Of a stretch of 64,000 nt of DNA, positions 85 through 44,944 are shown piece by piece. This DNA is from Candidatus Woesearchaeota archaeon (lineage in GTDB: Archaea; Nanobdellota; Nanobdellia; Pacearchaeales; GW2011-AR1). Below the pieces are notes generated by a model. The model was not told the origin of the DNA and did not search any database. It saw nothing but the letters and a program-made list of their open reading frames with translations. The translations under genes and the position numbers were made by a program. The stretch's first letter is position 1. Every line of letters starts with the position of its first letter. The stretch lies in the NCBI GenBank assembly GCA_964448605.1, contig CAYUZV010000004.1, forward strand, positions 645 to 64,644, written 5' to 3'.

Positions 85-435
85 ATGACAATTCCAAAAA
101 ATCATGGATATCGTTTAACCTATATCTGCGAGGAAGAAGAATCAGCAAAATGGGAAAATCCAGGATTACTTTATTCTTCAGAACTTGAATCAGTTGCAGA
201 AAAAATTTCCAAAGAATGGACTTATGGAAACAATAAAACAGACCCAAGAGGTTATATACATGAATTTTATTTCAATGATTCAGGAAGTTTTGCATCAATC
301 ACAAAAAAGAATTCTAACTCTCCTCCAGAGATTATATCAATAACCCTAATAAATTCAAAATCACCAGGAACCTTAGAAAAAATCGCACTAAAAATAGGAC
401 TTCACTACGATGAATCAGAAGTTCAAACAGATTAA
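85..435 (+). CDS. hypothetical protein (116 aa)
   Basis: ATG ORF after an AT-rich TATA-like tract. No motif recognised. Its 3' end overlaps the stop of the convergent giant ORF by 4 nt. Confidence 0.35.
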   Translation: MTIPKNHGYRLTYICEEEESAKWENPGLLYSSELESVAEKISKEWTYGNNKTDPRGYIHEFYFNDSGSFASITKKNSNSPPEIISITLINSKSPGTLEKIALKIGLHYDESEVQTD

Positions 436-5984: not shown

Positions 5985-7848
5985 TTAATCTAGACACCTC
6001 CAAACTATTATAATTTTCCTGCAATCCTTCAACAGATGTAGGACTTCCAAATTCTTCATAATCAATATTCAAAACATCCATTTCTAAATCTGTCTCACTC
6101 ACAAAATACTCCTGACTGCCCCCTCCGGTAATTGCACTTCCAACAACCTGCTCAGGAACTTCAATATCAAAACATTTCTCCTCTGTCATTCCAAAGACAC
6201 TCCAAACTCCTCCCTTAGGAACATCAACACACTTTTCCAAATTAGAAGAAGGAAGATCAATGCTTGAATCTGAATAAACATATGCCTTAATATCATATAA
6301 ACCTTCAACCAAAGAAACACTCTCTTGTTCAGGATAAGCCACAACAACACTTTTCTCAACATCCCCACTCTCAATATCCTTTCTTGAAAAACTAACTACT
6401 GCATATTCACTTCCTTCAATACCTATATTCAAATCAATATCATATTCATTTCTTAAAATAACAATAACTTCTCCAGAATCAATAGTTGAAACTAATTGTT
6501 TTTTAGTTTCATAACCTTCTGCACTTGCAATAATATAACCATTTTTGCATTGGGGAAATTTAGCATTCAAACTGCCCTCTGATGCAGAACCAATATCACA
6601 ACTTGTATCAAAACACTTAAATGAAATATCTGCACCAACACTTTCCAAATCACTATTATAAACTAAAACATCCATTTCAGTCAATTTATGCTTACACAAT
6701 TCAGGAACAACATCAGGCAAACTCTCTCCAGTTGCACTACGAGCCTGATTTTTATCAATATAAACAACAATCGGAAACTGAAAAATTTCACTCTCAGAAT
6801 AAATCTGAATTAAAACAGGATATGCAAAATCGTAAACAAAATGATAAGGAACATAACAAAAACCTAACATTCCCAATCCTTCCTGCAAACCAACAGGGTC
6901 AGCTCTCAAAATACCATTCTCAGAAGGCCAAACATCAACTTTCACAGGCCACTTCTTCAAAAACATAAAATTAACATCATACTTAACATCATTTCCAATA
7001 TCCTGAACAAAATATTTATTCTCTTTTTCAGACAAAGAATAATAATCTCCTTTAATTTTTATAAAAGGAACATTCTCACTCAAAGCATTAATCAAATCCT
7101 CTCTAATTTCATTAACATTCCAAATCTTAGGCGAACATCCAATATCACTTCCATCCACAGGAGCATTCAACCTCAAAATATCAATACCATAATTCTCCAA
7201 GAACATAGATTCCTGATTATGCTCATAAATTTCCTTGCTCAAATCATAAAACTCTCCCAAATGAGAATCAACCTCAACATCAAAATTACCTGAAGTCCAG
7301 GTAGTATTTCCAAAACCAATACTCAAATCTTGTTCAACATCTATTTTTATTTTATTATCTTTAATCTCACTTTCAACCTCACTCAAACCATAACTAATCG
7401 CAAAACCCTGCTCTTCAAATTCAGAAAAATCACAATCCTGCAATCTACCCTCTAAAAAAACATTCAACTGCTCTTCCATTTTTTCTTTAGACGGAACCTG
7501 TTCTTTTTTCACATTATTTCCAGAAATATAAAACCAATAAGGAACACCAATTCCCAAAAAATCCAATTGATTTGAAAAAGGCATATATTCTGAACCAGGT
7601 GAAAATTCCATTTCAATATAACCTCCTCCTTGCCCCATCAAATAAGCACCATTAGAAACCTCATTCTCAATACAAGACAAATAATAAGAATAAACTGGCT
7701 CAATATTTTTAGGTATTGAAGATTCAAAAGGATTTTTCACAACAAAAAAAACAACTCCAATAACAGCAACCAACACAATTGCAATTATAATAAAAATCGC
7801 AACCTGCCCTTTCTTAGCAATCAATGCTCTATCAAACTCTCCTTTCAT
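5968..7848 (-). CDS. large prepilin-like protein (626 aa) with class III-type signal peptide and beta-sandwich-like C-terminal region
   Basis: The N-terminus ...AKKG|QVAIFIIIAIVLVAVIGVVFFVV fits [KR]G plus a hydrophobic helix. GYIIASAEGYETKKQLV resembles a carboxypeptidase-regulatory-like fold. Its stop abuts the start of the giant ORF. Confidence 0.7.
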   Translation of the reverse strand: MKGEFDRALIAKKGQVAIFIIIAIVLVAVIGVVFFVVKNPFESSIPKNIEPVYSYYLSCIENEVSNGAYLMGQGGGYIEMEFSPGSEYMPFSNQLDFLGIGVPYWFYISGNNVKKEQVPSKEKMEEQLNVFLEGRLQDCDFSEFEEQGFAISYGLSEVESEIKDNKIKIDVEQDLSIGFGNTTWTSGNFDVEVDSHLGEFYDLSKEIYEHNQESMFLENYGIDILRLNAPVDGSDIGCSPKIWNVNEIREDLINALSENVPFIKIKGDYYSLSEKENKYFVQDIGNDVKYDVNFMFLKKWPVKVDVWPSENGILRADPVGLQEGLGMLGFCYVPYHFVYDFAYPVLIQIYSESEIFQFPIVVYIDKNQARSATGESLPDVVPELCKHKLTEMDVLVYNSDLESVGADISFKCFDTSCDIGSASEGSLNAKFPQCKNGYIIASAEGYETKKQLVSTIDSGEVIVILRNEYDIDLNIGIEGSEYAVVSFSRKDIESGDVEKSVVVAYPEQESVSLVEGLYDIKAYVYSDSSIDLPSSNLEKCVDVPKGGVWSVFGMTEEKCFDIEVPEQVVGSAITGGGSQEYFVSETDLEMDVLNIDYEEFGSPTSVEGLQENYNSLEVSRLNVWFS

Positions 7849-10940: not shown

Positions 10941-11780
10941 ATGGAACAAAAAAAGGTGATGAATAAAACACTTCTCAAAAAAGAAAAATCAAACTCTCAG
11001 AAATTAAAATCCCCTAAAAAAATTAAAATCCTAAAAAATAGAGTTTCAACAGGAATTCCGGGATTTGACAAACTTATCCAGGGAGGTTTTCCACAAGGTT
11101 CATCAATCCTTGTTTCAGGAGGTCCTGGAACAGGCAAAACAATTTTCGCAATGCAATATCTTGTTCAAGGAGCATTGAAAAATGAAAAAGGACTTTATGT
11201 AACTTTTGAACAAAGAGAATCTGATTTAACAAAACAGGCAAAACAATTTAAATGGAATTTAAATTCACTAACCTCAAATGGAACTCTTAAAATAATGTCA
11301 ATTCCAGTTCACAAACTAACAAGAAAAACAATCAAAGAAATCAAAGAAATTGTAAAAAAAGAAAACATAAAAAGATTGGTTATTGATTCTCTTTCAACTC
11401 TTGTTGTCAATGCACCAATATATACAAACCCTTCAGAACTTTCAGTAGAAGATGTTGTCGGAGATAATGTAACATTTTCACCTCCAATAATAGGAGATTA
11501 CATGGTGAGAAAATTTGTTTATGGATTCATAGAAGGACTAAGAAATTTAAATTCAACAAATCTTTTAATTGGAGAAGCAAACCAAACCGGAGACACAATT
11601 ACAAGAGACGGATTATCAGAATTCGCATGTGATGGAATAATCTCAATAAGTTTTGAATCCTTAGGAGGAGAATTCTCTCGCTCATTAATAGTCAGAAAAA
11701 TGAGAAGAACAAAAAACAATGAAGATGTTCATCCAATGGAAATTGGAAAACATGGAATAAAAATACACGATGTTGAATGA
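10941..11780 (+). CDS. KaiC/RecA-superfamily ATPase (279 aa) with Lys-rich N-terminal tail
   Basis: GIPGFDKLIQGGFPQGSSILVSGGPGTGKTIFAMQYL (Walker A) and RLVIDSLSTL (Walker B). Confidence 0.8.
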   Translation: MEQKKVMNKTLLKKEKSNSQKLKSPKKIKILKNRVSTGIPGFDKLIQGGFPQGSSILVSGGPGTGKTIFAMQYLVQGALKNEKGLYVTFEQRESDLTKQAKQFKWNLNSLTSNGTLKIMSIPVHKLTRKTIKEIKEIVKKENIKRLVIDSLSTLVVNAPIYTNPSELSVEDVVGDNVTFSPPIIGDYMVRKFVYGFIEGLRNLNSTNLLIGEANQTGDTITRDGLSEFACDGIISISFESLGGEFSRSLIVRKMRRTKNNEDVHPMEIGKHGIKIHDVE

Positions 11781-11824: not shown

Positions 11825-13024
11825 ATGATAGGAACACTAAATAAAGAGGTTTTAAAAAGTGGAGAATTTGTCTACCACAAAACAGAAAAAGGAAAAATAA
11901 AAGAATTTTTTGACCATCTTTTAGTTTATGGGGGAGCGAGTTTTGATAAAGGAATTTTAAGAATTTGGGGAGATCCTTCATTATTCACTCCTTTAGAAGG
12001 ATTTGTAATTTACTACCATTATTTGAAAAAATGCACAGGAAAATATGCAGATGAAATTTTCTACTGGCTCGGGCATTTATACGGAAAAAATTCCACTTTA
12101 ATGTTAATGAAAAAATTTGGATTTGACAAAAGAAAAGTAGCTGATTTTGTAAATGGAGCAACTCAGGATGGATTTGGTTATATGGATGTTGAAAAACTAA
12201 AATATACCAATACATCTTTTGATGGAAAAGTAGAAGGGACTAATTCAAATTTTGCAATAAGATATTCAAAAAAATACGGAATTCAGGAAACTCCTGTAGA
12301 TTTTTATATGGCAGGAATTCTTTCAGGAGGTTCAGAACCTTTATTCGGATTTCCAATTGAAGCAAAAGAAATAAAATGTATGGCACAAGGAAAAAAACAC
12401 TGCATATATGCAGTAAAAAGCACTTCAAAAACAAAAACACCTGAATTTTTTAAAAAAATAAATTTAAATGAAAAATTATTAAGAAAAAGAACAGGAATTC
12501 TTGGAAGAAAAAGAAAAATCAAATTCAGCATATTTAAAAAACCAGATATAAAATTTGGAGACGGAAGTTTCTACCTAAATAATTATCAAGGATTTAATTT
12601 AGCATCCTATGAACATGTCCTTTTAGACAAATTTTCATACCTTCTTTTAGGTGAAAAAAAATTCTTCAAATTAAAAGAAATAATTTCAAAAAAATATATA
12701 AAAGCAACATTAAATAAAAACCTGAAATCAGATTTAATAAGTAAAAAATCAATTCAAAATCTTTTAGAACACCTAAAAATTTTCGGATTTGGAGAACTTA
12801 AAATTTATTATTTCAAAGGAAAAAAAATAATAATAAAAAATTTAGAAAATCCTTATCTTTCAGATTCCTATGCTCTATTCAGAAAAATAGATTCAGAACT
12901 AGGATTAGACATGCCTGCAAAACTCCTAAAACATGCATTTAAAATATATTTTAACAAAGAATGCACTGCAGAACCTCTTAAAATAAACCCAAAAATAAGC
13001 TCTATAAAAATTACTCTTTCTTAA
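11825..13024 (+). CDS. V4R-domain protein (399 aa) with uncharacterised C-terminal half
   Basis: V4R-type C-x-x-G-x3-C signature in EIKCMAQGKKHCIYAVKS. Follows the KaiC-like gene after 44 nt. Confidence 0.55.
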   Translation: MIGTLNKEVLKSGEFVYHKTEKGKIKEFFDHLLVYGGASFDKGILRIWGDPSLFTPLEGFVIYYHYLKKCTGKYADEIFYWLGHLYGKNSTLMLMKKFGFDKRKVADFVNGATQDGFGYMDVEKLKYTNTSFDGKVEGTNSNFAIRYSKKYGIQETPVDFYMAGILSGGSEPLFGFPIEAKEIKCMAQGKKHCIYAVKSTSKTKTPEFFKKINLNEKLLRKRTGILGRKRKIKFSIFKKPDIKFGDGSFYLNNYQGFNLASYEHVLLDKFSYLLLGEKKFFKLKEIISKKYIKATLNKNLKSDLISKKSIQNLLEHLKIFGFGELKIYYFKGKKIIIKNLENPYLSDSYALFRKIDSELGLDMPAKLLKHAFKIYFNKECTAEPLKINPKISSIKITLS

Positions 13025-15501: not shown

Positions 15502-16065
15502 ATGGCACTATCATCCCTTTTACAAAAACTATTATTCATAAATAAATTCAACATAATAAATGGAAAAGTAGAACTTCTTGGAACAAGATATATCATGCTT
15601 GATTCATCATATCTTTTAACATTACAGGAAATAGATAAAAGCAAAACCTATGACATGGCAAAAGATGGTTCAAAGGAAAATCTTAAAAAATTAGTTACTC
15701 ATGCAGAAGTTTACAAAAACATAAAAAATCAGTCACTCCAAAAAATAGCAGAACTAAGCAAAAAAATAGGACAAACAGACGAAGGAGTTATAAAAACCCT
15801 TCAATCAATTTTTGAATTATATGGATTAGGAAAACTAACAGTTTTAAAATTAGAAAATGAATCCAAAAAAGCACTCCTCAAATTAGAAGACAGCACAATA
15901 GCAGTAGCCCAATTAAAAAAAGAAAAAACATCTCAACAAATCTGTTCATTCACAGCAGGAGTTCTTGCAGGAATATTCTCATATATATTCAAAAAAAATG
16001 TCAATTGCATTGAAAACAAATGCCTTGCAAAAGGAGATGCTTATTGTGAGTTTAAAGTTTATTAA
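15502..16065 (+). CDS. V4R-domain protein (187 aa)
   Basis: The C-terminal NCIENKCLAKGDAYCEFKVY is a classic V4R ending. Divergent from the reductase gene across an 80-bp spacer. Confidence 0.65.
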   Translation: MALSSLLQKLLFINKFNIINGKVELLGTRYIMLDSSYLLTLQEIDKSKTYDMAKDGSKENLKKLVTHAEVYKNIKNQSLQKIAELSKKIGQTDEGVIKTLQSIFELYGLGKLTVLKLENESKKALLKLEDSTIAVAQLKKEKTSQQICSFTAGVLAGIFSYIFKKNVNCIENKCLAKGDAYCEFKVY

Positions 16066-16267: not shown

Positions 16268-17086
16268 ATGAAAAGAGGGATAATAACACTTATTACTGCA
16301 TCAATTTTAGCAACATTCTTACTTTTCTATCTCACTCATTATTCAAATTCAGGTGCTTTTTCTTCAAAACTAAGCATAGATGAACAAATAAAAATGGAGT
16401 CAGGAGTAATCCAACTCTCAGTTAAACAACTTTTAGAAGGAAGCAAATTTTCAGTAAATAAAGACGACATAGTTATGTTTAGTTTAGAAGATGAAACCTA
16501 CTCATTCATCATAAGCGAAATTAATAGCAAAGAAAAAAGAATAGGAATAATTCTCGATAAAAAAGTTTTAATAAAAATAAAAGCACTTGAAGTAGAAAAA
16601 CTTAATTTAGATGGTGACGAATACTACGAACTCTCAATCTATGTTGATTCAGTAAACCACCAATCTGCAACCATCTCCTTTAAAAAAATAAATGAAAAAA
16701 TAGGAATGATTCAGCAAATTGACTCAAGAATCGAAACCCTCATCTACGAGTTTGAAGAAAACTACAAACTTCAGTTAAATTTTATTATAATAGCAGTCAT
16801 AGCAATGTTATTTGCAATGATTGCATATTTAGTAAAAATATACTTCCTTCCTCAAATGAAACTGAAAAAAAGAACTGAAAAAGAATCTCCAAGTGAAATC
16901 TTAGATTACCTTTTAAAAAATGCAGAACAAGCAAAACTAAAAAACAACATTCCAAAAATAAAAAAACTAAATAAAAAAATAAAAAACCTATACAACTATC
17001 TTCCATCCTCAAAAAAACAAAGATTTCAAAAAAGAATAAAAAACTTAGAAAATTATTTAAGTAAATGTGAGTTTAGTAAAAGATGA
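16268..17086 (+). CDS. membrane protein (272 aa) with Lys-rich cytoplasmic tail
   Basis: N-terminal TM plus an internal TM (FIIIAVIAMLFAMIAYLV). ATGA overlap with the downstream KaiC-like gene. Confidence 0.55.
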   Translation: MKRGIITLITASILATFLLFYLTHYSNSGAFSSKLSIDEQIKMESGVIQLSVKQLLEGSKFSVNKDDIVMFSLEDETYSFIISEINSKEKRIGIILDKKVLIKIKALEVEKLNLDGDEYYELSIYVDSVNHQSATISFKKINEKIGMIQQIDSRIETLIYEFEENYKLQLNFIIIAVIAMLFAMIAYLVKIYFLPQMKLKKRTEKESPSEILDYLLKNAEQAKLKNNIPKIKKLNKKIKNLYNYLPSSKKQRFQKRIKNLENYLSKCEFSKR

Positions 17087-17823
17087 ATTTAAAAAAAGTT
17101 ATAAAAAATCCTGTAAAAAAATCTTCAACAATAAGAAACAAAAACCGAACACCCACTGGAATAGCAGGATTTGACCGATTATGTAAAGGAGGTTTTATAA
17201 AAGATAGTATAAACCTTGTTATTGGAAATGCAGGTTCTGGAAAAACAACATTTCTACTCCAATTTTTATACAATGGAGCATCTCAGTTTAATGAAAGTGG
17301 TTTATTTGTAACATTTGAACAAGAAACCCATGACTTAAAAAGAACAGGAAAAAAACAAAACATGGATTTCGGCAAATTAGAAAAAAAAGGAAAAATACAT
17401 TTCTTAAAACTTAATCCAGACATGTCACTAAAACAAATACAAAAACAACTCATAAAAAGAATCACAGAATACGACATAAAAAGAATCTGCTTTGACCCAA
17501 TTAACATATTCTCACTAGAATTTCCAAAAGAAACAAATGTTCGAAAACAACTCTACGATTTTTTAAACATCCTAAAACAATTAGATTCCTGTGTTTTAAT
17601 ATCAGGAGAATCAGATAATGAAAATGGTTCAGGACAAAAAATAAACGAAGAAATAGTTTTCTGCAGATACTTAACAGATTCAGTTATTGAACTTTTTGCA
17701 TCAGGAATCTCAGGTTCAGGTGATAGAGCAATAAGAATTGTAAAAATGAGAATGACAGATCATCTAAGAGGTCCTGTAGGAATGCAAATAACAAACAATG
17801 GAATAAAAGTCCTAAAGAATTAA
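17083..17823 (+). CDS. KaiC/RecA-superfamily ATPase (246 aa)
   Basis: GIAGFDRLCKGGFIKDSINLVIGNAGSGKTTFLLQFL (Walker A) and ICFDPINIF (Walker B-like). Confidence 0.8.
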   Translation: MNLKKVIKNPVKKSSTIRNKNRTPTGIAGFDRLCKGGFIKDSINLVIGNAGSGKTTFLLQFLYNGASQFNESGLFVTFEQETHDLKRTGKKQNMDFGKLEKKGKIHFLKLNPDMSLKQIQKQLIKRITEYDIKRICFDPINIFSLEFPKETNVRKQLYDFLNILKQLDSCVLISGESDNENGSGQKINEEIVFCRYLTDSVIELFASGISGSGDRAIRIVKMRMTDHLRGPVGMQITNNGIKVLKN

Positions 17824-35242: not shown

Positions 35243-36979
35243 TCACTCCAAAACTCCTTTTATCCTTCTAACTCCTGAAGATGAACTTTCTTCTTTTTTA
35301 ATCCTAAACTTTCCCAACTCTCCTGTAGAAGAAACATGAGGTCCAGCACAAATTTCTTTTGAAAAATTTCCAATAGAATAAACCTTAACCTTGCCACCAT
35401 ATTTTGACTCAAAAACCCCTTGAGCACCAACTTCCTTAGCACGAGAAACACTCATCTCCTCACACTCAACAGACAAGTCCTCTTTAATTTTTTCATTAAC
35501 CAAATTCTCAATTTTCTTTTTCTCTTCATCACTCAATTTTCTATCAAAATTAAAATCAAATCTCAATCTTTCTCCAGTAATATTAGAACCTCTTTGTTCA
35601 ATCTCCTGCCCTAAAATTCTTCTCAATGCTTCAGCCAACAAATGAGTTGCAGTATGCAATTTAGTTGTTTCCTCTGAACTATCAGCCAAACCAGATTTAA
35701 ATCTCCCTTGAGTAGCAGTCCGCGAAAGCTCCTGATGTTTCTCAAACTCTTTTTCAAAACCTTTTTCATCAACCTTAACTCCTTTTTCCTTACCTAACTC
35801 AATAGTCATCTCAATCGGAAAACCATAACTTTGATACAACAAAAAAGCATTCTTCCCGGAAATATTCCCTGAAGACAATCTATCAAAAACCCTCATACCT
35901 CTTTCAATAGTTTCCAAAAAGTTTTCTTCCTCTTTAACTAATTCATTTAAAATTTTTTCCTTATCTTTCAAAATATCATAATCCCTATAAATCTCAAAAA
36001 CAGATTTTCCAATTTCCTTAACAAAATTTTTCATTCCCAATACACGCCCATATCTTACAGCCCTTCTAATCAATCTCCTCAAAACATAACCCTGTTCAGA
36101 ATTAGAAGGAACAACACCATCTCCAATAATAAAAACACTCGCCTTAATATGGTCAGCAATAATCCTCATTTCTCTTTTATTCTCATCATATTTCTTTTCA
36201 CTCACTTTCTCTATACTCTGAATAACCTTTAAAAAACAATCAGTCAAATAGTTATCATTTAATCCATTTAAAACAGCAACTGTTCTCTCAACTCCCATTC
36301 CTGTATCAATATTCTTCTGTTTCGCCTCATTGTAAGAACCTGAATCATCCTTCTCATATTGCATTAAAACATCATTCCAAATCTCAACCCAATTTTTATC
36401 ATCAGAATTAAATTTATCAGGAACTTTTTCAGAACCACTCCAATAAAACATTTCAGTATCAGGACCACAAGGACCTGTGTTTCCAGCAGGTCCCCACCAA
36501 TTATCCTTTTTACCTAAAAAAACAATCCTCTCCTCATCCAACCCAAGTCCCTTCCATATTTCAAAACTCTCTTTATCCTTAGGTGCATCCTTATCTCCCT
36601 TAAAACAACTAACTCCTAATTTATCAACTGAAATACCTAACTCCTCAGTCAAAAACTCAAAACTCCACTCAATAGCTTCTTTTTTAAAATAATCACCCAA
36701 ACTCCAATTTCCCAACATCTCAAAAAATGTATGATGCACTTCATCACCTACTTCCTCAATATCTCCTGTCCTAATGCATCTTTGAACATTCACCAATCTT
36801 GAACCAGATGGATGCTTCTGCCCCAAAAGATAAGGAACCAAAGGATGCATACCTGCAGTGGTAAACAAAACAGTAGGATCATTTTCAGGAATAAGAGAAA
36901 AATTAGAAATCTCTTTATGTCCTTTCTCCTTAAAAAATTCAATATATTTTTTCATTAATTCCTTTCTATCCATCTCCAA
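35243..36979 (-). CDS. alaS: alanyl-tRNA synthetase, short bacterial-like form lacking the C-Ala domain (578 aa)
   Basis: FFKEKGH, DPTVLFTTAGM, QRCIRTGDIEEVGD..HHTFFEMLGNWSLGDYFK, and the editing-domain motif HTATHLL. Confidence 0.9.
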   Translation of the reverse strand: MEMDRKELMKKYIEFFKEKGHKEISNFSLIPENDPTVLFTTAGMHPLVPYLLGQKHPSGSRLVNVQRCIRTGDIEEVGDEVHHTFFEMLGNWSLGDYFKKEAIEWSFEFLTEELGISVDKLGVSCFKGDKDAPKDKESFEIWKGLGLDEERIVFLGKKDNWWGPAGNTGPCGPDTEMFYWSGSEKVPDKFNSDDKNWVEIWNDVLMQYEKDDSGSYNEAKQKNIDTGMGVERTVAVLNGLNDNYLTDCFLKVIQSIEKVSEKKYDENKREMRIIADHIKASVFIIGDGVVPSNSEQGYVLRRLIRRAVRYGRVLGMKNFVKEIGKSVFEIYRDYDILKDKEKILNELVKEEENFLETIERGMRVFDRLSSGNISGKNAFLLYQSYGFPIEMTIELGKEKGVKVDEKGFEKEFEKHQELSRTATQGRFKSGLADSSEETTKLHTATHLLAEALRRILGQEIEQRGSNITGERLRFDFNFDRKLSDEEKKKIENLVNEKIKEDLSVECEEMSVSRAKEVGAQGVFESKYGGKVKVYSIGNFSKEICAGPHVSSTGELGKFRIKKEESSSSGVRRIKGVLE

Positions 36980-37188: not shown

Positions 37189-37518
37189 TCACTTCTCCAA
37201 TTTCTCCAGTTTCTTCTTTATCTCATCCAACTCTTTATAAAAATCATCACCCTTTTCTCTTTTTACACTTTTTTCTTTCTTCTGTTCCTCATTCAAAGAT
37301 TCCTTAGGCAAACTTGACAAAAACAAACCTGATGCCCTTTTCAAAGCACTCAACTGATTTTTAAATTTCCCTTTTTCAGCAAATTCCCTTTTTCTCAAAT
37401 TCTTGTATGCTTTAAGTTTCTTTCCAATTTTCAAAAGATTCATCTCTAAATTCAAAAGTTCTTTTTTAGCATTCATTGCCTCTTCAAAATCCAATCTAAC
37501 ATGTCTTGTCTCTACCAT
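37189..37518 (-). CDS. coiled-coil protein (109 aa from Met7) with HVRLDFEE motif
   Basis: MVETRHVRLDFEEAMNAKKELLNLEMNLLKI..., K/E-rich. The ATG follows the upstream stop directly. Confidence 0.5.
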   Translation of the reverse strand: MVETRHVRLDFEEAMNAKKELLNLEMNLLKIGKKLKAYKNLRKREFAEKGKFKNQLSALKRASGLFLSSLPKESLNEEQKKEKSVKREKGDDFYKELDEIKKKLEKLEK

Positions 37519-37519
37519 T

Positions 37520-37738
37520 TTAAAAATCATAATCATCTTCAGTTTTATAAGAATCTGAATGAAAATAACTTGAAGAAATTAAAGCACCTAAGGTAGATAA
37601 TCCAAAAACAGTAGTTCCTGTATCTACTCCATAATACCTTGCAACAATTCCTCCTCCCACAGCACCTCCGCAAAAAATCATTAAAGGAACCGATTTAACA
37701 ATAAGATTCACTAATCCTGATTTATTTTTTTCTTCCAT
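37520..37738 (-). CDS. small Gly-zipper membrane protein (72 aa from Met16)
   Basis: FCGGAVGGGIVARYYG...GLSTLGALISS. The Met16 ATG lies 4 nt after the upstream stop. Confidence 0.45.
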   Translation of the reverse strand: MEEKNKSGLVNLIVKSVPLMIFCGGAVGGGIVARYYGVDTGTTVFGLSTLGALISSSYFHSDSYKTEDDYDF

Positions 37739-37742
37739 TTTA

Positions 37743-38282
37743 TCAATCCAACTTTCCAAAAACATTCCTATCAACTGCTTCAATTCTCGCTTTTATTGAA
37801 GCAATCTCACTCTCCCACTCCTGCAATTCAACCTCTTCCTGCTTTTTAATATCTTTAATTTTAACTAACAAATTCTCAATTTCATTAATTTTATTTTTAA
37901 TTTCATTAAAAGATTCAACAGTAGTTTCAAATTTATCCAACCTCACATAAATCGGCTCATTTCTTTTAACATAATTTTTTGTTTCAGGAGCTTCAATTCG
38001 AGAAGGTGTGCTGGGAGGCACAGAAACCTCTCTCTCTTCAGATTGCTCAAAATTCATAGGTTCTGCTCTTACAGGTTCAACAGGAGGATTCTGTCTAATA
38101 GTATTTTTAATTTCATTAGGATTAACCTCTCCACCAGGCAAAGCAGGTAAAGGACTCGTTTCAACATTGCCAACCTCTGGAAGATTCATATTTGATGCAC
38201 TCCCAAAAGAACCCGAACTACCTGGCAAATTAGGCAATCTCAATTCTTCTTCATTCTCATCTTCTTTTTTAAACCAACTCAT
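37743..38282 (-). CDS. protein with Pro-rich disordered N-terminal half and coiled-coil C-terminal half (179 aa), YVRLDKFE motif
   Basis: LPNLPGSSGSF...PALPGGEVNP..., then PIYVRLDKFETTVESFNEIKNKINEIENLL... Confidence 0.55.
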   Translation of the reverse strand: MSWFKKEDENEEELRLPNLPGSSGSFGSASNMNLPEVGNVETSPLPALPGGEVNPNEIKNTIRQNPPVEPVRAEPMNFEQSEEREVSVPPSTPSRIEAPETKNYVKRNEPIYVRLDKFETTVESFNEIKNKINEIENLLVKIKDIKKQEEVELQEWESEIASIKARIEAVDRNVFGKLD

Positions 38283-38300: not shown

Positions 38301-38744
38301 CTACTTAAAAATCTTTTCAAACCTCTCTTCATAAAAATAAGACACCTTAAAACCCTCCCAAGAATCTCCAATTTTAATACTTAAATCAAAACTAACTCCT
38401 TCATCAGAAAACTCAACACTTTCAGAATCAACTTGCATCGCAACTTCTTTCAATTTCTCATTCAAAAATTCATCAGCAATATTATAATTTTCCAACTCCT
38501 CCTTAAATCTCAGAATAAACTCCTCCTCACCCTCAACTCCCCTAACACTCCTCTCCATTAAAAAATCAATATAAAAATTTAACTCATCCTCCTTTAAATA
38601 AACACTATCTAAAAAACTTGAATCCAAAATTTCATTCTCAACTTTTCCACTATGAGTAATAAAAACATAAATTGCAAAAAAACTCAAACCCAAAGCTAAA
38701 AAAACATAAATTCCAGTTGCAATCTGTCCTTTTTTCATTAACAT
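38301..38744 (-). CDS. prepilin-like protein (147 aa)
   Basis: MKKG|QIATGIYVFLALGLSFFAIYVFI. Its start overlaps the upstream stop (TAATG/ATGTTAA). Confidence 0.65.
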   Translation of the reverse strand: MLMKKGQIATGIYVFLALGLSFFAIYVFITHSGKVENEILDSSFLDSVYLKEDELNFYIDFLMERSVRGVEGEEEFILRFKEELENYNIADEFLNEKLKEVAMQVDSESVEFSDEGVSFDLSIKIGDSWEGFKVSYFYEERFEKIFK

Positions 38745-39343
38745 TTTTTTAATTGTTTAAATTTAATTTTAAAATTGTAACCCTTATAAAAAAAATCCAT
38801 ACTAACCTCATCACTCAATTCTCCATTCAAATTCCTAAAACTATCAGGAACAAAACCCTTTTCACTAATAACTCCTTGAGGAATCTTCAAATAAAATTTC
38901 TCACAATTAATAACTCCTGCAATTTGCCCTTCTAATATCTTCTTTTTTCTTTCCAACTCAACAATTCTATCTTTATCAAAACCTTCATTTTCAGCAATCA
39001 AAGGACTAATCTTATCCAACCCCTCAATTCCAAATTTTTCAATTAAACTCTCTCCATCAGCATAAGAAGATTTAATCTCAAAATATTCATCTAAGAAATC
39101 CAAAATAATATTTATCAATTTCTCATCATCTACTTCACTATTAAGAAATTTAACCAAATCATTTTTAACTTCTATTTTTTCAGAAATTAATTTTAAACTA
39201 TCTCTTCCTTCTCCTCCTAAAAACTCCATCTTCCCTCCGGCAATAGCAAGAGAACTGCTAACAAAAGCAACAGAAATTCCAAATATAATTATAAATGCAA
39301 CAAACTCTGTTAAAAAATCTCCAACAGAACCTTTAATGTTCAT
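38738..39343 (-). CDS. prepilin-like protein (201 aa)
   Basis: MNIKG|SVGDFLTEFVAFIIIFGISVAFV. ATGA overlap with the upstream gene. Confidence 0.65.
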   Translation of the reverse strand: MNIKGSVGDFLTEFVAFIIIFGISVAFVSSSLAIAGGKMEFLGGEGRDSLKLISEKIEVKNDLVKFLNSEVDDEKLINIILDFLDEYFEIKSSYADGESLIEKFGIEGLDKISPLIAENEGFDKDRIVELERKKKILEGQIAGVINCEKFYLKIPQGVISEKGFVPDSFRNLNGELSDEVSMDFFYKGYNFKIKFKQLKKC

Positions 39344-39762
39344 CCTAAACCTCCTGAAAAACCTTTCTGCCTAACACCCACCAAAATATCTAAATTCCCT
39401 TTTTCAACCAAGACACATTCAGGATAATTTTCAGCTTCACCAGAAAGAGAAATCAAACAATCTTTTTCAAAAGCATAATTCCCGCCCTTAAATTCCTGTG
39501 AGTCCACCCTAACCCTAAAAAATAAATTCCCTTTTTCAAAAGCACTTTTATCTAATCCACAATAAGAATAAACATCAATCTCACTTCCAGAATAATCCCT
39601 AAAACAATCAACCAATCTCTCTGCTAAAATTTCAGCATTTTCATAATCAATATTGACATCAGCATAATAAACAATAAGAACACTTCCTGCAACAGCACCT
39701 CCCACTACCAAAATTATAAAAATTCTCCATATTGTCAAAATCTTCTCACCCTTTCTATTCAT
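39340..39762 (-). CDS. prepilin-like protein (140 aa from Met8)
   Basis: MNRKG|EKILTIWRIFIILVVGGAVAG. ATGA overlap at 39759-39762. Confidence 0.6.
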   Translation of the reverse strand: MNRKGEKILTIWRIFIILVVGGAVAGSVLIVYYADVNIDYENAEILAERLVDCFRDYSGSEIDVYSYCGLDKSAFEKGNLFFRVRVDSQEFKGGNYAFEKDCLISLSGEAENYPECVLVEKGNLDILVGVRQKGFSGGLG

Positions 39763-40130
39763 TTTACAATCACACTCAACCAATTCTTATCCAGTTTCAA
39801 CTCAACATCATAACCTGAAAAATAAGGATAAGAATATCCATTATTTAATTTAACTTCAACTAAATTTTCAGCTTTATTTAAATAAAAAATATCGTCAGAA
39901 TTATCTCTTCTTGAAACAACATCACCAACCTCAATTAAAATAACTGTTTCTGGTTTTGCCTTGTTAATTATCAAAGCAATTTGTTTTGCATAGGTCATTT
40001 CATAAATTCCATCCCTCTCACCAGCACTAACCACGAAAACACCCATCATCACTATAAATGCCAAATAAAAAATTAAAAATATAGTTGTTCCCATTAACAA
40101 TCCTCTTTTGCTCATCAATCTCTTTTTCAT
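39759..40130 (-). CDS. prepilin-like protein (123 aa)
   Basis: ...SKRG|LLMGTTIFLIFYLAFIVMMGVFVV. Confidence 0.6.
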   Translation of the reverse strand: MKKRLMSKRGLLMGTTIFLIFYLAFIVMMGVFVVSAGERDGIYEMTYAKQIALIINKAKPETVILIEVGDVVSRRDNSDDIFYLNKAENLVEVKLNNGYSYPYFSGYDVELKLDKNWLSVIVK

Positions 40131-40167
40131 AAATACTTCAAGAATAACAAAGTTATAAATTTAACTT

Positions 40168-41106
40168 TTAAGCAATACTCTCAACCCTGCATTCCAAACC
40201 AGAAATCTTTCCATAATCCATAAACAAATTTACAGTAGCACTTGTATCATCTATTTCGCTAATTAAATTATCTCTTGCTTCATCACCTGCTTCTTTTCCT
40301 AAAACTCCTCCAACAAAACTTCCACCAACAAATCCAATAAAACCTCCTGCAAAACTTCCTGCAACAGGAACTATCGAACCAATTGAAGCACCAATATAAG
40401 CACCTGCAACACCTCCTGCTCCACCCCCTGCCACTCCAGAAATCCACACAGGAGCAGTTGACTTACTCAACTCCATATAAACAACTGCCTTTTCATCCAT
40501 ATCAAAAACATCATGCTTTTCATCATAACCTCTTGCATCCAAACCAGAAGTAACAAAATTCCAATAAGAAATCTCCTTTCCAGGAACTTTAGAAGTCATC
40601 ATATAATTCCCCAAACCTTTAATCTGCCCAACACTATTCTTCAAAGACTCATCAAAAGCAATTCTATAACAAATAACACACTTCCTATTTATATCACTTT
40701 GTAAATTAAAATCCTGTGAAAAAACATTCAAATCACCCTTACCCATTTTACTCCAACACTCTGCCTGTTTTCGTGAAAGAATCTCATTTATCTGAACCTT
40801 TATTTCAGCAATACTGCCACTAACTTTTTCAATTCCATAATCATCTCCTCTAAACTCCTCACACTCTCCTCCAATCCAATCATCACTAATACAAATTTTT
40901 TTTGTCTTACATTTCAATGGAATCAAATCCTTAGAATTAAAAATCTCAGGAACACTTGCTTTTTTACTAACAGATTCCTCACAAATAACATCATCAACAT
41001 CAACAGAATTCTCAAATCTCAAAAACAAAAACAAAAGAATCCCAAATGCAACTAAAATCAAAACCAATCCAATAACTACAGATGATGTCAAACCCTTCTT
41101 TTCCAT
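40168..41106 (-). CDS. prepilin-like protein (312 aa) with Cys-containing globular domain and C-terminal Gly-zipper segment
   Basis: MEKKG|LTSSVVIGLVLILVAFGILLF, and a C-terminal GVAGGGAGGVAGAYIGASIGSIVPVAGSFAGGFIGFVGG. Confidence 0.65.
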   Translation of the reverse strand: MEKKGLTSSVVIGLVLILVAFGILLFLFLRFENSVDVDDVICEESVSKKASVPEIFNSKDLIPLKCKTKKICISDDWIGGECEEFRGDDYGIEKVSGSIAEIKVQINEILSRKQAECWSKMGKGDLNVFSQDFNLQSDINRKCVICYRIAFDESLKNSVGQIKGLGNYMMTSKVPGKEISYWNFVTSGLDARGYDEKHDVFDMDEKAVVYMELSKSTAPVWISGVAGGGAGGVAGAYIGASIGSIVPVAGSFAGGFIGFVGGSFVGGVLGKEAGDEARDNLISEIDDTSATVNLFMDYGKISGLECRVESIA

Positions 41107-41107
41107 T

Positions 41108-41203
41108 TTAAAAACCCATCAACCTATTTACAATAAAATACAATCCACTAAATAAAACTACTGCTAAAACCATCCACAAAACATACTTAATCAACTTATC
41201 CAT
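41108..41203 (-). CDS. possible 31-aa single-TM peptide (below cutoff)
   Basis: Hand translation: MDKLIKYVLWMVLAVVLFSGLYFIVNRLMGF. Its stop lies 1 nt before the downstream ATG. Confidence 0.3.
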   Translation of the reverse strand: MDKLIKYVLWMVLAVVLFSGLYFIVNRLMGF

Positions 41204-41223
41204 CTGTGCTTTTTTCAAATCTT

Positions 41224-41724
41224 TCATTTTTCACGAATAATCACCTCATTATTCTTTTTAAAAATATCAAATTCCTCTACTCCATCTATTCCTAAAAAAT
41301 TCTCATTTCCTTCATCATCAATTGTAACTCCCTTAAAATTCAACCCCTTGCAAACTCCATACTTATTACACTCTCTTAATTCTCTTTCCCAAGCTAAAGA
41401 AAAACCAAACAAACCAACTGAAGGACACATGCACAAACAATAACTGCTCCTGCATTGTTGAGGTTTCTGATAAGTATTTTTATTAGGCCAAACCTCCAAC
41501 ATCCAACCAGAAGGTGACTCAATTATAATCTCTTTTTCATCTCCCTCTTCAATCTCTTCAATAAATCCATAAACACTCTCTAAACTAACCTCCGCTTGTT
41601 TAGATTTTGTATCATTAAGATAAATCATACTTAATTGATAAGCAAGTATAAAAAGAATTATCAAAACAACGATTCCTAAAAAAACCTTCACAAGCTCGCT
41701 CATCATAAATTCACCTTTGCTCAT
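41224..41724 (-). CDS. prepilin-like protein (166 aa)
   Basis: MSKG|EFMMSELVKVFLGIVVLIILFILAY, with 6 Cys in the globular part. Confidence 0.6.
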   Translation of the reverse strand: MSKGEFMMSELVKVFLGIVVLIILFILAYQLSMIYLNDTKSKQAEVSLESVYGFIEEIEEGDEKEIIIESPSGWMLEVWPNKNTYQKPQQCRSSYCLCMCPSVGLFGFSLAWERELRECNKYGVCKGLNFKGVTIDDEGNENFLGIDGVEEFDIFKKNNEVIIREK

Positions 41725-42250
41725 TTTTAATCACCTCGCATAAATCATAAACCTGTTCACCAGATTCATATTCAAATTTCTTTTCTTTATTATTTTGAAT
41801 AATATAAACCGAAGCTCCTGAAAACCAACCACCTTCTTCATTTTTTAAAACCCTTTTAATAATCTCTCTTAATCCAATTTCACAACTTTCTCCTTTTAAT
41901 CCTAAAATAAAATCCCTGTCTTTTTCATTTAACTTCTTAAAATTATCTGCATTTACTTCTCCAACACCAAACCATTTTGTCCCATCAGACCACATCCACC
42001 CCTCCTTAAATGCAAAATACAAATAAGGAGTTCCCCAAACTCCATCATCAAATTTAAAATAAGGAATTTCAGAATTTCCATCATAAATATCTAAACCTAT
42101 CTTTTCATCACTCTGAATAAAATCTGGAAAAAAATCCGGCAAATCCAAAATACCAAATCCTGCAAACAAAACAACAATAACAACAATAATCCCTATAGCA
42201 AGTGCTACTATATAACTCATACTCATCTCCCTAGCACCTCTGCGATTCAT
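41711..42250 (-). CDS. prepilin-like protein (179 aa from Met7)
   Basis: MNRRG|AREMSMSYIVALAIGIIVVIVVLFAGF. Confidence 0.55.
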   Translation of the reverse strand: MNRRGAREMSMSYIVALAIGIIVVIVVLFAGFGILDLPDFFPDFIQSDEKIGLDIYDGNSEIPYFKFDDGVWGTPYLYFAFKEGWMWSDGTKWFGVGEVNADNFKKLNEKDRDFILGLKGESCEIGLREIIKRVLKNEEGGWFSGASVYIIQNNKEKKFEYESGEQVYDLCEVIKNEQR

Positions 42251-42251
42251 C

Positions 42252-42410
42252 TTAAACTCCAAAATCAAATAAATTTTTTATAAAATTTTCAGCACCAAAA
42301 AGCTTACCACCAAGCCCCATATAAACTCCGACCACTACAATCACTAAAATACCAACTCCAATAATCCACTTCAAAAGTTCATCAATCCCTATCCTGCCTT
42401 TCTTTAACAT
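42252..42410 (-). CDS. short prepilin-like protein (52 aa, below cutoff)
   Basis: Hand translation: MLKKG|RIGIDELLKWIIGVGILVIVVVGVYMGLGGKLFGAENFIKNLFDFGV. ATGTTAA overlap with the upstream stop. Confidence 0.5.
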   Translation of the reverse strand: MLKKGRIGIDELLKWIIGVGILVIVVVGVYMGLGGKLFGAENFIKNLFDFGV

Positions 42411-42736
42411 TCTACACTCCTGCAATCCAAAAATTTAATTCTATCATTAATATAATCTTCATCCCTCAACAAATAACAACTAACAGAAAAATCCTCTCCC
42501 TTAACCTTCACCTTCCGAAGCTCACAACAATAAGAATATTCTTGTTCAGTATCAACCAAAATATTACACTCTTGAACAACTGAATCAACATTGCTATTTG
42601 AAAAATAACTTGAAATAAAATCCATAAAACCCGAACTTCCTATTAAAAAAAATGTAACTAAAAAAATCAGCACAACTAAAGCAAGAATCATCACAACAAC
42701 ATTATTCCAAACCAATTGCATACCTCTTTTATCCAT
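42404..42736 (-). CDS. prepilin-like protein (110 aa)
   Basis: MDKRG|MQLVWNNVVVMILALVVLIFLVTFFLI, with 5 Cys in the C-terminal part. Confidence 0.6.
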   Translation of the reverse strand: MDKRGMQLVWNNVVVMILALVVLIFLVTFFLIGSSGFMDFISSYFSNSNVDSVVQECNILVDTEQEYSYCCELRKVKVKGEDFSVSCYLLRDEDYINDRIKFLDCRSVEC

Positions 42737-42796
42737 AAACTAAATAAAAAACAAGACTTAATAAAAGTTCTGATTAAACACTATCAGCAATCCCTA

Positions 42797-44944
42797 CTAA
42801 CCCAACCCTCCCAGTGCCACCTCCACCATCAAACCAAGTGCAATAATACTCACAAGAGCAGTAATCAAATAAAGCAAACAACCTCTAAACAAATTCTTAG
42901 ATAATTCATTTGTCTGTTTTAATTTATCTGAACCAGAATCAATTGTAACCAAAGTTCCAGTTAAAATAAAAATTATCTGAACAATATAAATTCCAATTGC
43001 AATCTGAAGGTAATAAGGTGGAACCATATTCAAAATATTAAACAAATCAACAACACTTCCAATTGTCCCAAAACCTCCTAACCCTACATCTCCCTGCCCC
43101 ATTTCAGACAAAATATTTAACCTACCCAAAATTCCAGTAATCATTCCAGACAAACCAACAACAATTCCAGCCAAAAGAGGAGCTAAAAAAACCATATTAC
43201 TCTTCATATCACTTGAAACATCAGCAAGTAAATCCTTCAACCTCTGATTAATCTTATTCATATTTCCAACATATTCAGAAATACTTCTCAAACTATCAGC
43301 AGCAACTTTCAAACCCTTTTTAACAGATTCAATCAAAATCCTCATAGAACTTGCAATCATATCTGAAGGAAAATAAAGAATAGCTCCTCTATTCGGATTA
43401 AAAATCGCCTGTTCAAGCCCCATTCCCATTGAATGAATATTCGTGCTCACAATTCTAAAAAACTCCTCTGTTTTCTGCCCTTTTGTAGTCTGCGAAATCT
43501 TTGAAAAAGCAATTTCAGCAGGAGTCCGATTTTCTAAAATATTCGCTAAACTAAACAAACTACTATTAAACTCTCTCTCCAACTGCCGAGTATCATTTCG
43601 AGATTTAATTAATTTTTTTGTTTTCATAGAATAACTTAAAGAAAAAAACATAGCAACAGAAAAAGGAACAAACAAACTTAAAATCAAAGCACCTAAACCA
43701 AAAGGCCCTTTTCCCTCCTGAAACCCAAAAACCTCTCCCCCTAAAAACTCCAAACTATAATCAACACCAAGATAACCAAACAACAAAGGTGAAAATCCAA
43801 TTAACAAAAAAGGCAAACAAATCAAACCTGTAATAAAATAAGCCCTATTAGATTTATACTGTGAATAAAAAGGATTTCTCTCAATAAAACCACTTTCACC
43901 ATAACCTCCTGGTCTTTTTAACATAATCTGCGAAGTCATATAAAATACAAAAAAAGGAATAATCAAATTAAAAAAAACAAAAATATGAATTGATTTTATC
44001 AATCCCCCTAACAATGTTGAAGCCAAAGGCAAAAGTGCAAGTCCAAGAGTAGGAAGAATAATTCCAAGCATATAAACATTAAACAAAGGAGATTTAATTG
44101 AATGAGTATATTTCAACATCCTGTCATAAACCCCATCAAGAATAACTTTCAAAGCCCTTTCCAAAATCTGAATCCTCCGGGCATTATTAGGTTCAAACAA
44201 ACTACTCTCAATCAAATGAAAACTCTCAATAAACTCCAGATTACTATCTCTCCAAAACTCAAGATAATTATCAAGACTATCCTTAATATTTGAAAACTTC
44301 CCTGTCTCAACATCCCACAAAACCTTTCTAAAATCAAGAGAAAGTGGTGCCTCAATATTCTGACTCACAAAATTAATCGCTCTCTCTAAATTACTAGTAT
44401 GTTTCATATAAATCACAGCATAAAGAATAGCAGGAACCATCTGACTGCTTGCTTTCAGTTTCCACTTCACAGCCAACCTTGAAGGCATTGTATAAAAATA
44501 ATAAAAAACAAAAATTCCAGATACAAAAAATAAAAACAAAAAAATAAAAGGAAAACTCCCTCCAAAAAACCAAATAATCAAACTTGCCAAAATTCCAATT
44601 AAAAAAATCATTAAAGAACTAAAAACAGCCAAACCCCCCACTCCTGCAGGAGAAACATCAAGATGCGCAACCTCAATACTTTTATTCAATTTAATATTAT
44701 CCTTAGCAGAAAACTTAATCTTGATTATATTTCCAAAACTCTTAACCCATTTTTCATATCTTGAAACCTCTGGCATCATATCACTTTTAAACTGCTCATA
44801 TTCCTGAGAATCAAAATTACTCTTAACATCTGCAGATGTTTTAACCTGTTCACCAAGTTTCCGAGAGTATTTCGACAAAATTTGATTTATATCCATTTTC
44901 CTCTTTTTGAGAACTTTACTAATTTGATTTTCCAAGGACTTCAA
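42797..44944 (-). CDS. type IV pilus/archaellum platform protein, T2SS-F (PilC/TadC/ArlJ-like), 715 aa
   Basis: Polytopic, with two repeats of a cytoplasmic helical bundle plus TM block. Examples: NLERAINFVSQNIEAPLSLDFRKVLWDVETG and GMGLEQAIFNPNRGAILYFPSDMIASSMRILIESVKKG. Confidence 0.7.
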   Translation of the reverse strand: MKSLENQISKVLKKRKMDINQILSKYSRKLGEQVKTSADVKSNFDSQEYEQFKSDMMPEVSRYEKWVKSFGNIIKIKFSAKDNIKLNKSIEVAHLDVSPAGVGGLAVFSSLMIFLIGILASLIIWFFGGSFPFIFLFLFFVSGIFVFYYFYTMPSRLAVKWKLKASSQMVPAILYAVIYMKHTSNLERAINFVSQNIEAPLSLDFRKVLWDVETGKFSNIKDSLDNYLEFWRDSNLEFIESFHLIESSLFEPNNARRIQILERALKVILDGVYDRMLKYTHSIKSPLFNVYMLGIILPTLGLALLPLASTLLGGLIKSIHIFVFFNLIIPFFVFYMTSQIMLKRPGGYGESGFIERNPFYSQYKSNRAYFITGLICLPFLLIGFSPLLFGYLGVDYSLEFLGGEVFGFQEGKGPFGLGALILSLFVPFSVAMFFSLSYSMKTKKLIKSRNDTRQLEREFNSSLFSLANILENRTPAEIAFSKISQTTKGQKTEEFFRIVSTNIHSMGMGLEQAIFNPNRGAILYFPSDMIASSMRILIESVKKGLKVAADSLRSISEYVGNMNKINQRLKDLLADVSSDMKSNMVFLAPLLAGIVVGLSGMITGILGRLNILSEMGQGDVGLGGFGTIGSVVDLFNILNMVPPYYLQIAIGIYIVQIIFILTGTLVTIDSGSDKLKQTNELSKNLFRGCLLYLITALVSIIALGLMVEVALGGLG

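Follow-up and report, generated by a model that had tools for sequence, protein, structure and literature searches.

In a genome assigned to Candidatus Woesearchaeota archaeon (GTDB Pacearchaeales; assembly GCA_964448605.1), eleven genes on the minus strand form an operon that probably encodes platform and pilins, one half of a type IV pilus (filament) machine of archaeal kind, of the type carried by Pacearchaeota and Woesearchaeota among the tiny, symbiotic DPANN archaea (Diapherotrites, Parvarchaeota, Aenigmarchaeota, Nanoarchaeota plus Nanohaloarchaeota), with the motor and the prepilin peptidase provided in trans; the probability assigned to this reading is about 0.82. The operon lies at positions 38301..44944 of a 64,000-nt stretch of contig CAYUZV010000004.1 (forward positions 645-64,644), which is referred to here as the window, and consists of one large open reading frame (ORF) followed by ten small ones, named p1 to p10. 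The evidence is of three kinds: the large protein belongs to a family homologous to the T2SSF platform proteins; related loci in other genomes hold the same genes in synteny with a T2SSE ATPase and a Peptidase_A24 (A24) prepilin peptidase; and all ten subunit families carry an N-terminus of the class III signal type. A preliminary description of this DNA had proposed a PilC/TadC-like platform with coupled prepilins bearing class III signals in a DPANN-type genome, and the order of T2SSE, platform, pilins and A24 seen in relatives bears out this core proposal. Both Pacearchaeota and Woesearchaeota are abundant archaea that have not been cultivated and probably depend on hosts.

The platform protein and its conserved neighbours

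We conclude that the large protein is a divergent platform protein of the PilC/TadC/ArlJ type (T2SSF) that is missed by current profile models, on the grounds of PF00482 matches among members of its family, of a haloarchaeal homolog encoded beside a T2SSE gene, and of the synteny of its relatives with T2SSE and A24 genes. The family is a large one: more than 2700 proteins match, the top 120 at 61-72% identity, and a profile search of a library clustered at 50% identity recovered 1178 clusters belonging to it. All are annotated as 'hypothetical', none has a precomputed Pfam domain, and the named sources are Pacearchaeota, Nanoarchaeota or simply 'archaeon'. When 67 of the more divergent members, with identities of 22-42% and family-profile matches at E<=1e-73 in every case, were scanned singly against Pfam, 43 matched PF00482 T2SSF, with a best E of 1.1e-15, and the matches fall on the first of the two cytoplasmic bundles, which corresponds to domain 1 of the window protein (Table 1).

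The closest platform found outside DPANN is haloarchaeal. A tblastn search with the window protein reached a 604-aa 'secretion system protein' on plasmid pHTUR04 of Haloterrigena turkmenica (E 3e-10), whose gene is the immediate downstream neighbour of one for a type II/IV secretion ATPase (T2SSE E 4.5e-20), and hhalign aligned the family profile with this protein end to end over 563 columns (probability 100%, E 5e-43). The gene of the most distant family member examined (P0270) starts 1 nt downstream of a T2SSE gene; ATPase and platform genes are adjacent in locus L001. The plasmid locus (L089; NC_013747.1 16292..20060) consists of the ATPase-platform pair with adjacent pilins absent, and is flanked by genes for ParA, a DEAD/DEAH helicase, a DUF87 protein and an AAA ATPase; its platform, like those of the DPANN family, has no Pfam T2SSF match.

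Two repeats of T2SS-F type had been described in the large protein. No hidden Markov model (HMM) match displays them directly; support for them is indirect, and comes from the PF00482 matches within the family, from the haloarchaeal homolog, and from an hhalign comparison of the N-terminal with the C-terminal half of the family alignment, which pairs 86 columns in register (E 2e-4, probability 47%). The AlphaFold2 (AF2) model of the platform is all-helical, with a predicted local distance difference test (pLDDT) score of 74.8 and two cytoplasmic bundles among ~9 transmembrane (TM) helices. A Foldseek search with this model gave, for the first cytoplasmic domain, a local match to the cytoplasmic domain of EpsF (3c1q_B; probability 0.96, TM score 0.61), which is suggestive, although at E 2.2 it lacks significance. 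The reading frame itself stands as first described, at 715 aa from a TTG at 44944; its start is more likely the ATG at 44896, which yields 699 aa and places the operon at 38301..44896, because this ATG is preceded by AGAGGAAA, gives a product equal to the database protein P0001, and is the point at which homolog alignments start.

Among GTDB species representatives, 540 genomes proved to encode a relative; the best 80 loci, from entries titled Pacearchaeota, Woesearchaeota or Nanoarchaeota, were analysed, with family assignment by HMM. These loci share a canonical order: a trio of paralogous membrane proteins, each ~170 aa long, then T2SSE, the platform, an optional member of family F1 (the family of p1), families 2 to 10, F1, and A24; in one subgroup, the platform is inverted relative to the other genes. 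Two close relatives on long contigs, whose platforms are 63% identical, have, in this order, a 761-aa T2SSE, the platform, ten to thirteen small genes and a 282-aa Peptidase_A24. Of the 28 loci whose sequence extends 9 kb or more to either side, 27 have T2SSE within 10 kb and 23 have the peptidase; the remaining locus without ATPase (L058) has neither of the two within reach. A platform gene with no ATPase nearby is also seen in L009, L021 and L068. The multiplicity of distinct subunits that had been remarked on for this operon is thus confirmed; the idea that it was an idiosyncratic elaboration is not, as the set comprises about ten families that are fixed, in conserved order, throughout the order.

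Two features of the relatives deserve mention in their own right. The three paralogous membrane proteins (~165-170 aa, with no Pfam match) stand just upstream of T2SSE in 25-37 related loci, for instance at 4260..6082 in L003 and 3507..5247 in L004, and may be a further conserved part of the machine. With 761 aa (L003 7289..9574), the T2SSE ATPase that goes with the platform is of unusual length; the Pfam T2SSE domain covers only residues ~416-586, and L003 T2SSE and its orthologs have a large uncharacterised N-terminal region.

The ten pilin-like subunits

All eleven ORFs of the preliminary description are present at the coordinates it gave; they are intact, and their lengths are typical of their families. 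The tight coupling that had been noted between them is equally evident, with 4-nt ATGA overlaps at p4/p5, p7/p8 and p8/p9, 7-nt ATGTTAA overlaps at p1/p2 and p9/p10, a 14-nt overlap at p3/p4 and 1-nt spacers at p2/p3 and p5/p6; longer spacers stand only 5' of p1 (60 nt) and 5' of p7 (37 nt).

The pilin identity of the ten small proteins rests on their N-terminal signature, their Cys pattern and their genomic neighbours. Each of the ten, scored by a home-made rule resembling FlaFind and not by FlaFind itself, begins with a basic leader of 4-12 residues that ends in [KR][GA] and leads directly into a hydrophobic helix of ~20 residues. Nine had previously been seen to carry [KR]G immediately before the helix, which holds. 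The tenth had been taken for a motif-less ORF of 31 aa at 41108..41203; p5 most likely starts at the ATG at 41227 instead of 41203, because that start forms an ATGA overlap with the stop codon of p4, and the resulting 39-aa protein has a KKA site, so that all ten carry [KR][GA]. Among proteins with an N-terminal TM helix, the motif stands right before the helix in 490 of 550 orthologs (89%), as against 31% of unassigned control ORFs. Ten ATG-started ORFs of at least 90 aa in the window have a class-III-like N-terminus, and eight of these lie inside the operon. In eight of the families, 74-93% of members have an acidic residue at one of positions +1 to +7, counted from the predicted mature end.

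The description of several subunits as Cys-rich is upheld by their orthologs: Cys residues are conserved in 78-100% of members in families 1, 4, 6 and 8 (81-91% for those of p4), and the even-numbered conserved sets of F4, F6 and F8 suggest extracellular disulfides. The HMM of F1 also matches p3, p2 and p5 through the N-terminal helix, and such cross-matches among F1, F2, F3 and F5 fit, as expected, paralogous pilins.

Every subunit ORF of the window has orthologs in 45-72 related loci, in the same order. Identity to the orthologs in L003 is 23-45%, compared with 62% for the platform; fast-evolving pilins beside a conserved core are the usual pattern. The protein p1 matches the F1/ds11 family HMM at 2.4e-33 and is 45% identical to its L003 ortholog; F1 often occurs twice per locus in relatives and, being small, often duplicated and strongly conserved at its N-terminus, is the best candidate for the major pilin. 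Orthologs of p2 (median 55 aa) directly follow the platform or p1 in 72 loci. Family F3/ds03, to which p3 belongs, holds the same position in relatives and is the most variable of all, p4 has 62 phmmer matches and is present in 68 loci, and p5 has orthologs of 31-77 aa in the same position in 52 loci. Towards the end of the operon, orthologs number 54 for p7 (in 54 loci), 53 for p8, 47 for p9 (in 45 loci) and 50 for p10 (in 49 loci).

Three subunits are atypical. In their predicted mature forms, p2 and p5, with 47 and 32 residues, are barely more than a helix. The p5 family (31-41 aa) also includes leaderless orthologs, such as those at 12972..13073 in L044 and 6664..6765 in L075, for which no peptidase would be needed. 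The third, p6, is the best-conserved subunit (34% identity and E 2e-44 to L003), with seven conserved Cys in its ectodomain and an eighth in the short C-terminal tail, the eight being kept in 83-100% of members. Between ectodomain and tail lies a second hydrophobic segment, G/A-rich and ~45 residues long (about 222-270), whose position is conserved and whose sequence is not; its G fraction is at least 0.2 in 36 of 55 members. This architecture suggests that p6 probably has a membrane anchor at either end, and implies a hairpin that would return the tail to the outside and allow a disulfide with the ectodomain, an arrangement unusual for a pilin-like protein.

Table 1. Genes of the operon and domains of the platform protein, in window coordinates (leader residues precede the predicted cleavage site)
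Feature	Position	Strand	Properties
Platform, divergent T2SSF/PilC/TadC/ArlJ homolog	42797..44896	-	699 aa; ~9 TM helices and two cytoplasmic helical bundles predicted
Platform domain 1, T2SSF-like cytoplasmic helical	44027..44428	-	Residues ~157-290; PF00482 matches of P0222, P0259 and P0138 mapped via the family alignment
Platform domain 2, T2SSF-like cytoplasmic, more divergent	43157..43558	-	Residues ~447-580; inferred boundaries, from N/C hhalign and the AF2 bundle; no direct Pfam match
p1, pilin-like	42404..42736	-	110 aa; leader MDKRG, then MQLVW; 5 conserved Cys
p2, mini-pilin-like	42252..42410	-	52 aa (mature 47); ATG 42410; leader MLKKG, then RIGIDELLKW
p3, pilin-like	41711..42250	-	179 aa; ATG 42250; leader MNRRG, then AREMS
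p4, pilin-like	41224..41724	-	166 aa; leader MSKG, then EFMMSELVK; 6 conserved Cys
p5, mini-protein	41108..41227	-	39 aa (mature 32); leader MKDLKKA, then QMDKLIKYVLW; ATGA overlap with p4 stop
p6	40168..41106	-	312 aa; leader MEKKG, then LTSSV; Cys-rich ectodomain, G/A-rich hydrophobic segment, short tail
p7, pilin-like	39759..40130	-	123 aa; leader MKKRLMSKRG, then LLMGT; conserved YAKQIAL motif; no Cys
p8, pilin-like	39340..39762	-	140 aa; ATG 39762; leader MNRKG, then EKILTIW; 4 conserved Cys
p9, pilin-like	38738..39343	-	201 aa; leader MNIKG, then SVGDFLTEF
p10, pilin-like	38301..38744	-	147 aa; leader MLMKKG, then QIATG; last conserved operon gene in this genome

Conflicting evidence and a probable split locus

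Several results weigh against the assignment of this operon to a type IV pilus machine. The platform protein itself gives no T2SSF/PF00482 match in Pfam (E<=1) or NCBIfam, its family profile matched no chain among PDB sequences other than a spurious bL28 at E ~0.7, and Foldseek with the whole model found nothing significant globally. The PF00482 search had been set in the preliminary description as a result that could overturn the platform assignment; the direct match failed and the divergent family members matched, so that the missing match on the window protein is, judged from its family, from the haloarchaeal homolog and from the gene order in relatives, a failure of profile sensitivity and not counter-evidence. 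Pfam and NCBIfam scans of the eleven proteins yielded nothing above noise. Among the subunits, none of the ten matched a curated pilin, archaellin or class-III-signal model (such as PF04021, PF07790 and PF01917) in Pfam or NCBIfam, and 148 orthologs drawn from all ten families showed no consistent Pfam match and none to a pilin model, in keeping with the earlier statement that the composition was not predictable from known archaeal pili. Approximately half of the p5 orthologs have no leader and start exactly at the predicted cleavage site (MNLDSLIKYLIW...). The second hydrophobic segment of p6 is not that of a simple extractable pilin, and p6, the sole subunit modelled, reached an AF2 pLDDT of 53 with no meaningful Foldseek match, so no pilin fold was seen; homolog searches for p6 gave 2 and then 8 proteins, possibly because its Gly-rich, low-complexity stretches exhausted the list of candidates, and the model was built from a 9-sequence alignment. 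Finally, tblastn with the relatives' proteins (E<=1e-2) detected no T2SSE or A24 in the window, nor did HMMs of the two families (68 and 39 members, respectively; E<=10), which confirms the earlier observation that no ATPase or peptidase lies within 64 kb.

This last absence had been regarded as a property of the system, which does not hold: 27 of the 28 fully flanked relatives keep the ATPase, and what is missing in this window points to a rare local rearrangement and not to new biology. We read the operon as a split locus, whose ATPase and peptidase, encoded elsewhere in the genome, would act in trans, because all eleven genes are intact and family-typical in length. Two further elements of the canonical order, the second F1 pilin and the trio of membrane proteins upstream, are also absent from the window (HMM, E<=10), and the platform gene here follows genes for Ndk and ribosomal protein S3Ae. 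An independent assembly of run SRR7048218 contains an identical copy of this arrangement, which is therefore not a chimera; exact protein matches came from runs SRR7048218 and SRR7048228, in short Logan contigs. Identity between the platform and its relatives is 62-74% (67% to the best match among GTDB species representatives), and hundreds of invariant positions are kept.

Downstream of p10, after an 18-nt spacer, three small genes at 37189..38282 (-) encode proteins of 179, 87 and 115 aa, the first with a Pro-rich N-terminus and a coiled-coil C-terminus, the second a membrane protein and the third a coiled-coil protein. They were considered as part of the system and excluded, as no homolog is found in ~83 related loci. 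An alanyl-tRNA-synthetase-like ORF of 578 aa, which by eye only seems short for such an enzyme, lies directly downstream of the locus at 35243..36979 (-).

Other genes of the window touch on the same question at a greater distance. A 626-aa protein encoded at 5968..7848 (-) has the class-III-like N-terminus MKGEFDRALIAKKG, followed by QVAIFIIIAIVLV, and its gene overlaps the start of that for an 1850-aa Cys-rich protein with an N-terminal signal peptide (432..5984, -). Neither has a meaningful Pfam match; the two could be a pilus-associated or surface adhesin pair served by the same peptidase. Two ATPases of the KaiC family are encoded on the plus strand, at 10941..11780 (Pfam KaiC 1.9e-59) and 17083..17823 (9.1e-48). 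A gene for a V4R-domain protein (11825..13024, +) comes after the first, and the second clusters with a gene that is V4R-like by eye only (15502..16065, +) and with one for a 272-aa membrane protein whose N-terminus has KRG before a TM helix (16268..17086, +). A regulatory role in archaeal type IV pili has been suggested for ATPases of this kind (PMC4858521). In composition, the window has a G+C content of 27-35%, and its plus-strand GC skew stays negative (-0.1 to -0.6; about -0.5 to -0.6 within the operon). As the minus strand carries most of the genes, G outnumbers C on the coding strand.

Proposed mechanism, alternatives and known systems

Leader cleavage, filament formation, the roles of the subunits and the biological role are inferred by analogy with known machines. 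The ten small proteins would insert into the membrane through their N-terminal hydrophobic helix, and an A24 prepilin peptidase would cut the basic leader after [KR][GA]. The platform would then couple a cytoplasmic hexameric T2SSE ATPase to the lifting of processed subunits from the bilayer, and these would polymerise into a helical surface filament held together by the N-terminal helices. The shaft would consist of one or two families, for which F1/p1 is the best candidate, and most other families would probably be minor, priming or tip subunits; p6, because of its second hydrophobic segment at the C-terminus, would be less likely to join the filament than to stay in the membrane as a base or alignment component. 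ATPase, peptidase and the second F1 pilin would all act in trans from elsewhere in the genome. The likely role is attachment to a host or surface, possibly with uptake, as has been proposed for other episymbionts.

A bolder version of this scheme, which we consider unlikely, is that the fixed set of ten to eleven subunits builds a specialised host-contact organelle instead of an ordinary adhesive pilus: a retractile or conduit-like type IV filament that could serve both attachment and the uptake of host DNA, lipids and metabolites. It draws on the two mini-subunits, on the doubly anchored, Cys-rich p6, and on the three paralogous membrane proteins of relatives. If this were true, the organelle would be a distinct branch of type IV filaments whose components no current model recognises, and it could explain pili-like links between ultra-small cells and their hosts that have been attributed to bacteria of the candidate phyla radiation (CPR) only. 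In a groundwater study, type IV pilus components were reported as missing from DPANN, so that piliated ultra-small cells were assigned to CPR bacteria (bioRxiv 10.1101/2020.05.14.094862).

The same machinery might, with a low probability, build not a true pilus but a short membrane-proximal pseudopilus or scaffold, used for the export or positioning of surface proteins or for the uptake of DNA or other macromolecules from a host; the models would be the pseudopilus of the type II secretion system (T2SS), the Sulfolobus bindosome assembly system and the competence pilus. A large, fixed and ordered set is closer to the minor pilins or pseudopilins of bacterial T2SS and competence systems than to variable adhesins, p6 is apparently tethered at both ends, the two mini-subunits are very small, and the 626-aa and 1850-aa proteins could be clients. 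However, no secretin-like, ComEC-like or substrate-binding component is seen in the operon or in related loci, and frequent duplication makes family F1 look like a major pilin. Scaffold and true pilus are inseparable by sequence alone.

That the operon is a decaying remnant, non-functional after a rearrangement that removed its ATPase, second F1 pilin and peptidase, is very improbable. The 64-kb window does lack T2SSE and A24, the flanks are unrelated (Ndk and S3Ae on one side, lineage-specific small genes on the other), and the arrangement is rare, being found in one of the 28 fully flanked loci of relatives. Against decay stand eleven intact ORFs of family length that keep their conserved Cys, [KR][GA] sites and translational coupling, the strong conservation of the platform, the identical copy assembled from an independent sequencing run, and the four related loci (L058, L068, L021 and L009) in which the platform is also apart from an ATPase; archaeal pilins and ATPase/TadC modules that act in trans are, moreover, documented (PMC4858521).

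It is hardly credible that no pilus system is present at all, and that an unrelated polytopic protein is followed by uncleaved type II signal anchors whose [KR]G merely reflects the positive-inside rule: curated models recognise none of the eleven proteins and nearly a third of control ORFs have the motif, but the site occurs at the same place in all ten window ORFs and in the great majority of the 550 orthologs, the platform family is homologous to T2SSF, and co-location with T2SSE and Peptidase_A24 is conserved in relatives. An archaellum (motility) locus has a negligible chance, despite a platform of the ArlJ/TadC type and two window ATPases of the KaiC family, which includes ArlH: no archaellin, ArlF/G or ArlC/D/E/X match was found in the operon or in 148 orthologs, relatives' loci have no ArlH beside the ATPase and hold only T2SSE, platform, pilin families and A24, and the KaiC genes of the window were rejected as ArlH-like partners on account of their distance (21-27 kb) and their pairing with V4R-domain genes.

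The archaeal type IV pilus machine favoured here is to be set against what has been described. Many lineage-specific variants of archaeal type IV pili were catalogued by Makarova, Koonin and Albers 2016 (PMC4858521). Makarova et al. 2019 (PMC6393860) took unannotated signal-peptide genes beside an ATPase and TadC in a DPANN 'dark matter' island to be pilins, and Hamm et al. 2024 (PMC11291902) described two conserved type IV pilus loci across cluster 2 DPANN, including Pacearchaeota and Woesearchaeota, with coiled-coil proteins reported in such loci. No relation was found to the 'novel secretion system' of arCOG01314/arCOG02884 (Makarova et al. 2015, PMC5898192), which was also considered. The kind of system and its presence in these two lineages are thus already known from the 2019 and 2024 reports; the composition and order of the ten families, the mini-subunits, the p6-type component and a platform family that escapes PF00482 appear, as far as those reports could be read, to be undescribed.

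In general terms, the system, which standard annotation overlooks, is genuine but rather ordinary. Loci of this type occur in at least 540 species-level genomes, and all their components except the ATPase and the peptidase are labelled 'hypothetical', with the consequence that automated surveys undercount them. An ordered catalogue of ten families, together with recognition of the platform, offers targets for HMM building, metaproteomics, the interpretation of cryo-electron tomograms and heterologous assembly.

The loci reported for cluster 2 DPANN come from the same lineages and have the same core of a CpaF/FlaI-type ATPase and TadC (PMC11291902, PMC6393860); the coiled-coil proteins highlighted by Hamm et al. 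were not identified in this operon. With the type IV pili of Euryarchaeota, including haloarchaea (PilB, PilC/TadC, PilA, PibD; PMC4858521), the system shares, in relatives, adjacent T2SSE and T2SSF platform genes and an A24 peptidase, as well as several pilin genes with short class III leaders ending in [KR][GA] and pilins that evolve much faster than the ATPase/platform module. It differs from them in that its platform and pilins are unrecognised by Pfam and NCBIfam, in the ten to eleven fixed and ordered families that take the place of PilA, an arCOG02911 minor pilin and a few others, in the two mini-subunits and the additional C-terminal hydrophobic segment of p6, and, in this genome, in a platform uncoupled from its ATPase, something unusual even in comparison with its relatives.

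Bacterial T2SS pseudopilus and type IVa minor-pilin sets (GspG-K; FimU-PilVWXE) resemble this operon in the coupling of several prepilin-like subunits with a PilC/GspF-type platform, in the acidic residue near the mature N-terminus of most families and in apparently Cys-stabilised head domains. Here, by contrast, leader and cleavage site are of the archaeal type and the N_methyl motif was not detected, there is no secretin or outer-membrane component, and the head domains have no detected sequence similarity to those of the bacterial sets. The archaeal-type TadC platform is phylogenetically linked to the Tad/Flp group. Tad/Flp pili (TadA, TadB/TadC, the ~50-aa Flp, TadV) recall the very small subunits p2 and p5; no Flp motif or family match is seen in the operon, which differs from them in a single, fused platform of two putative repeats that stands in place of TadB and TadC, and in a far greater number of subunit types.

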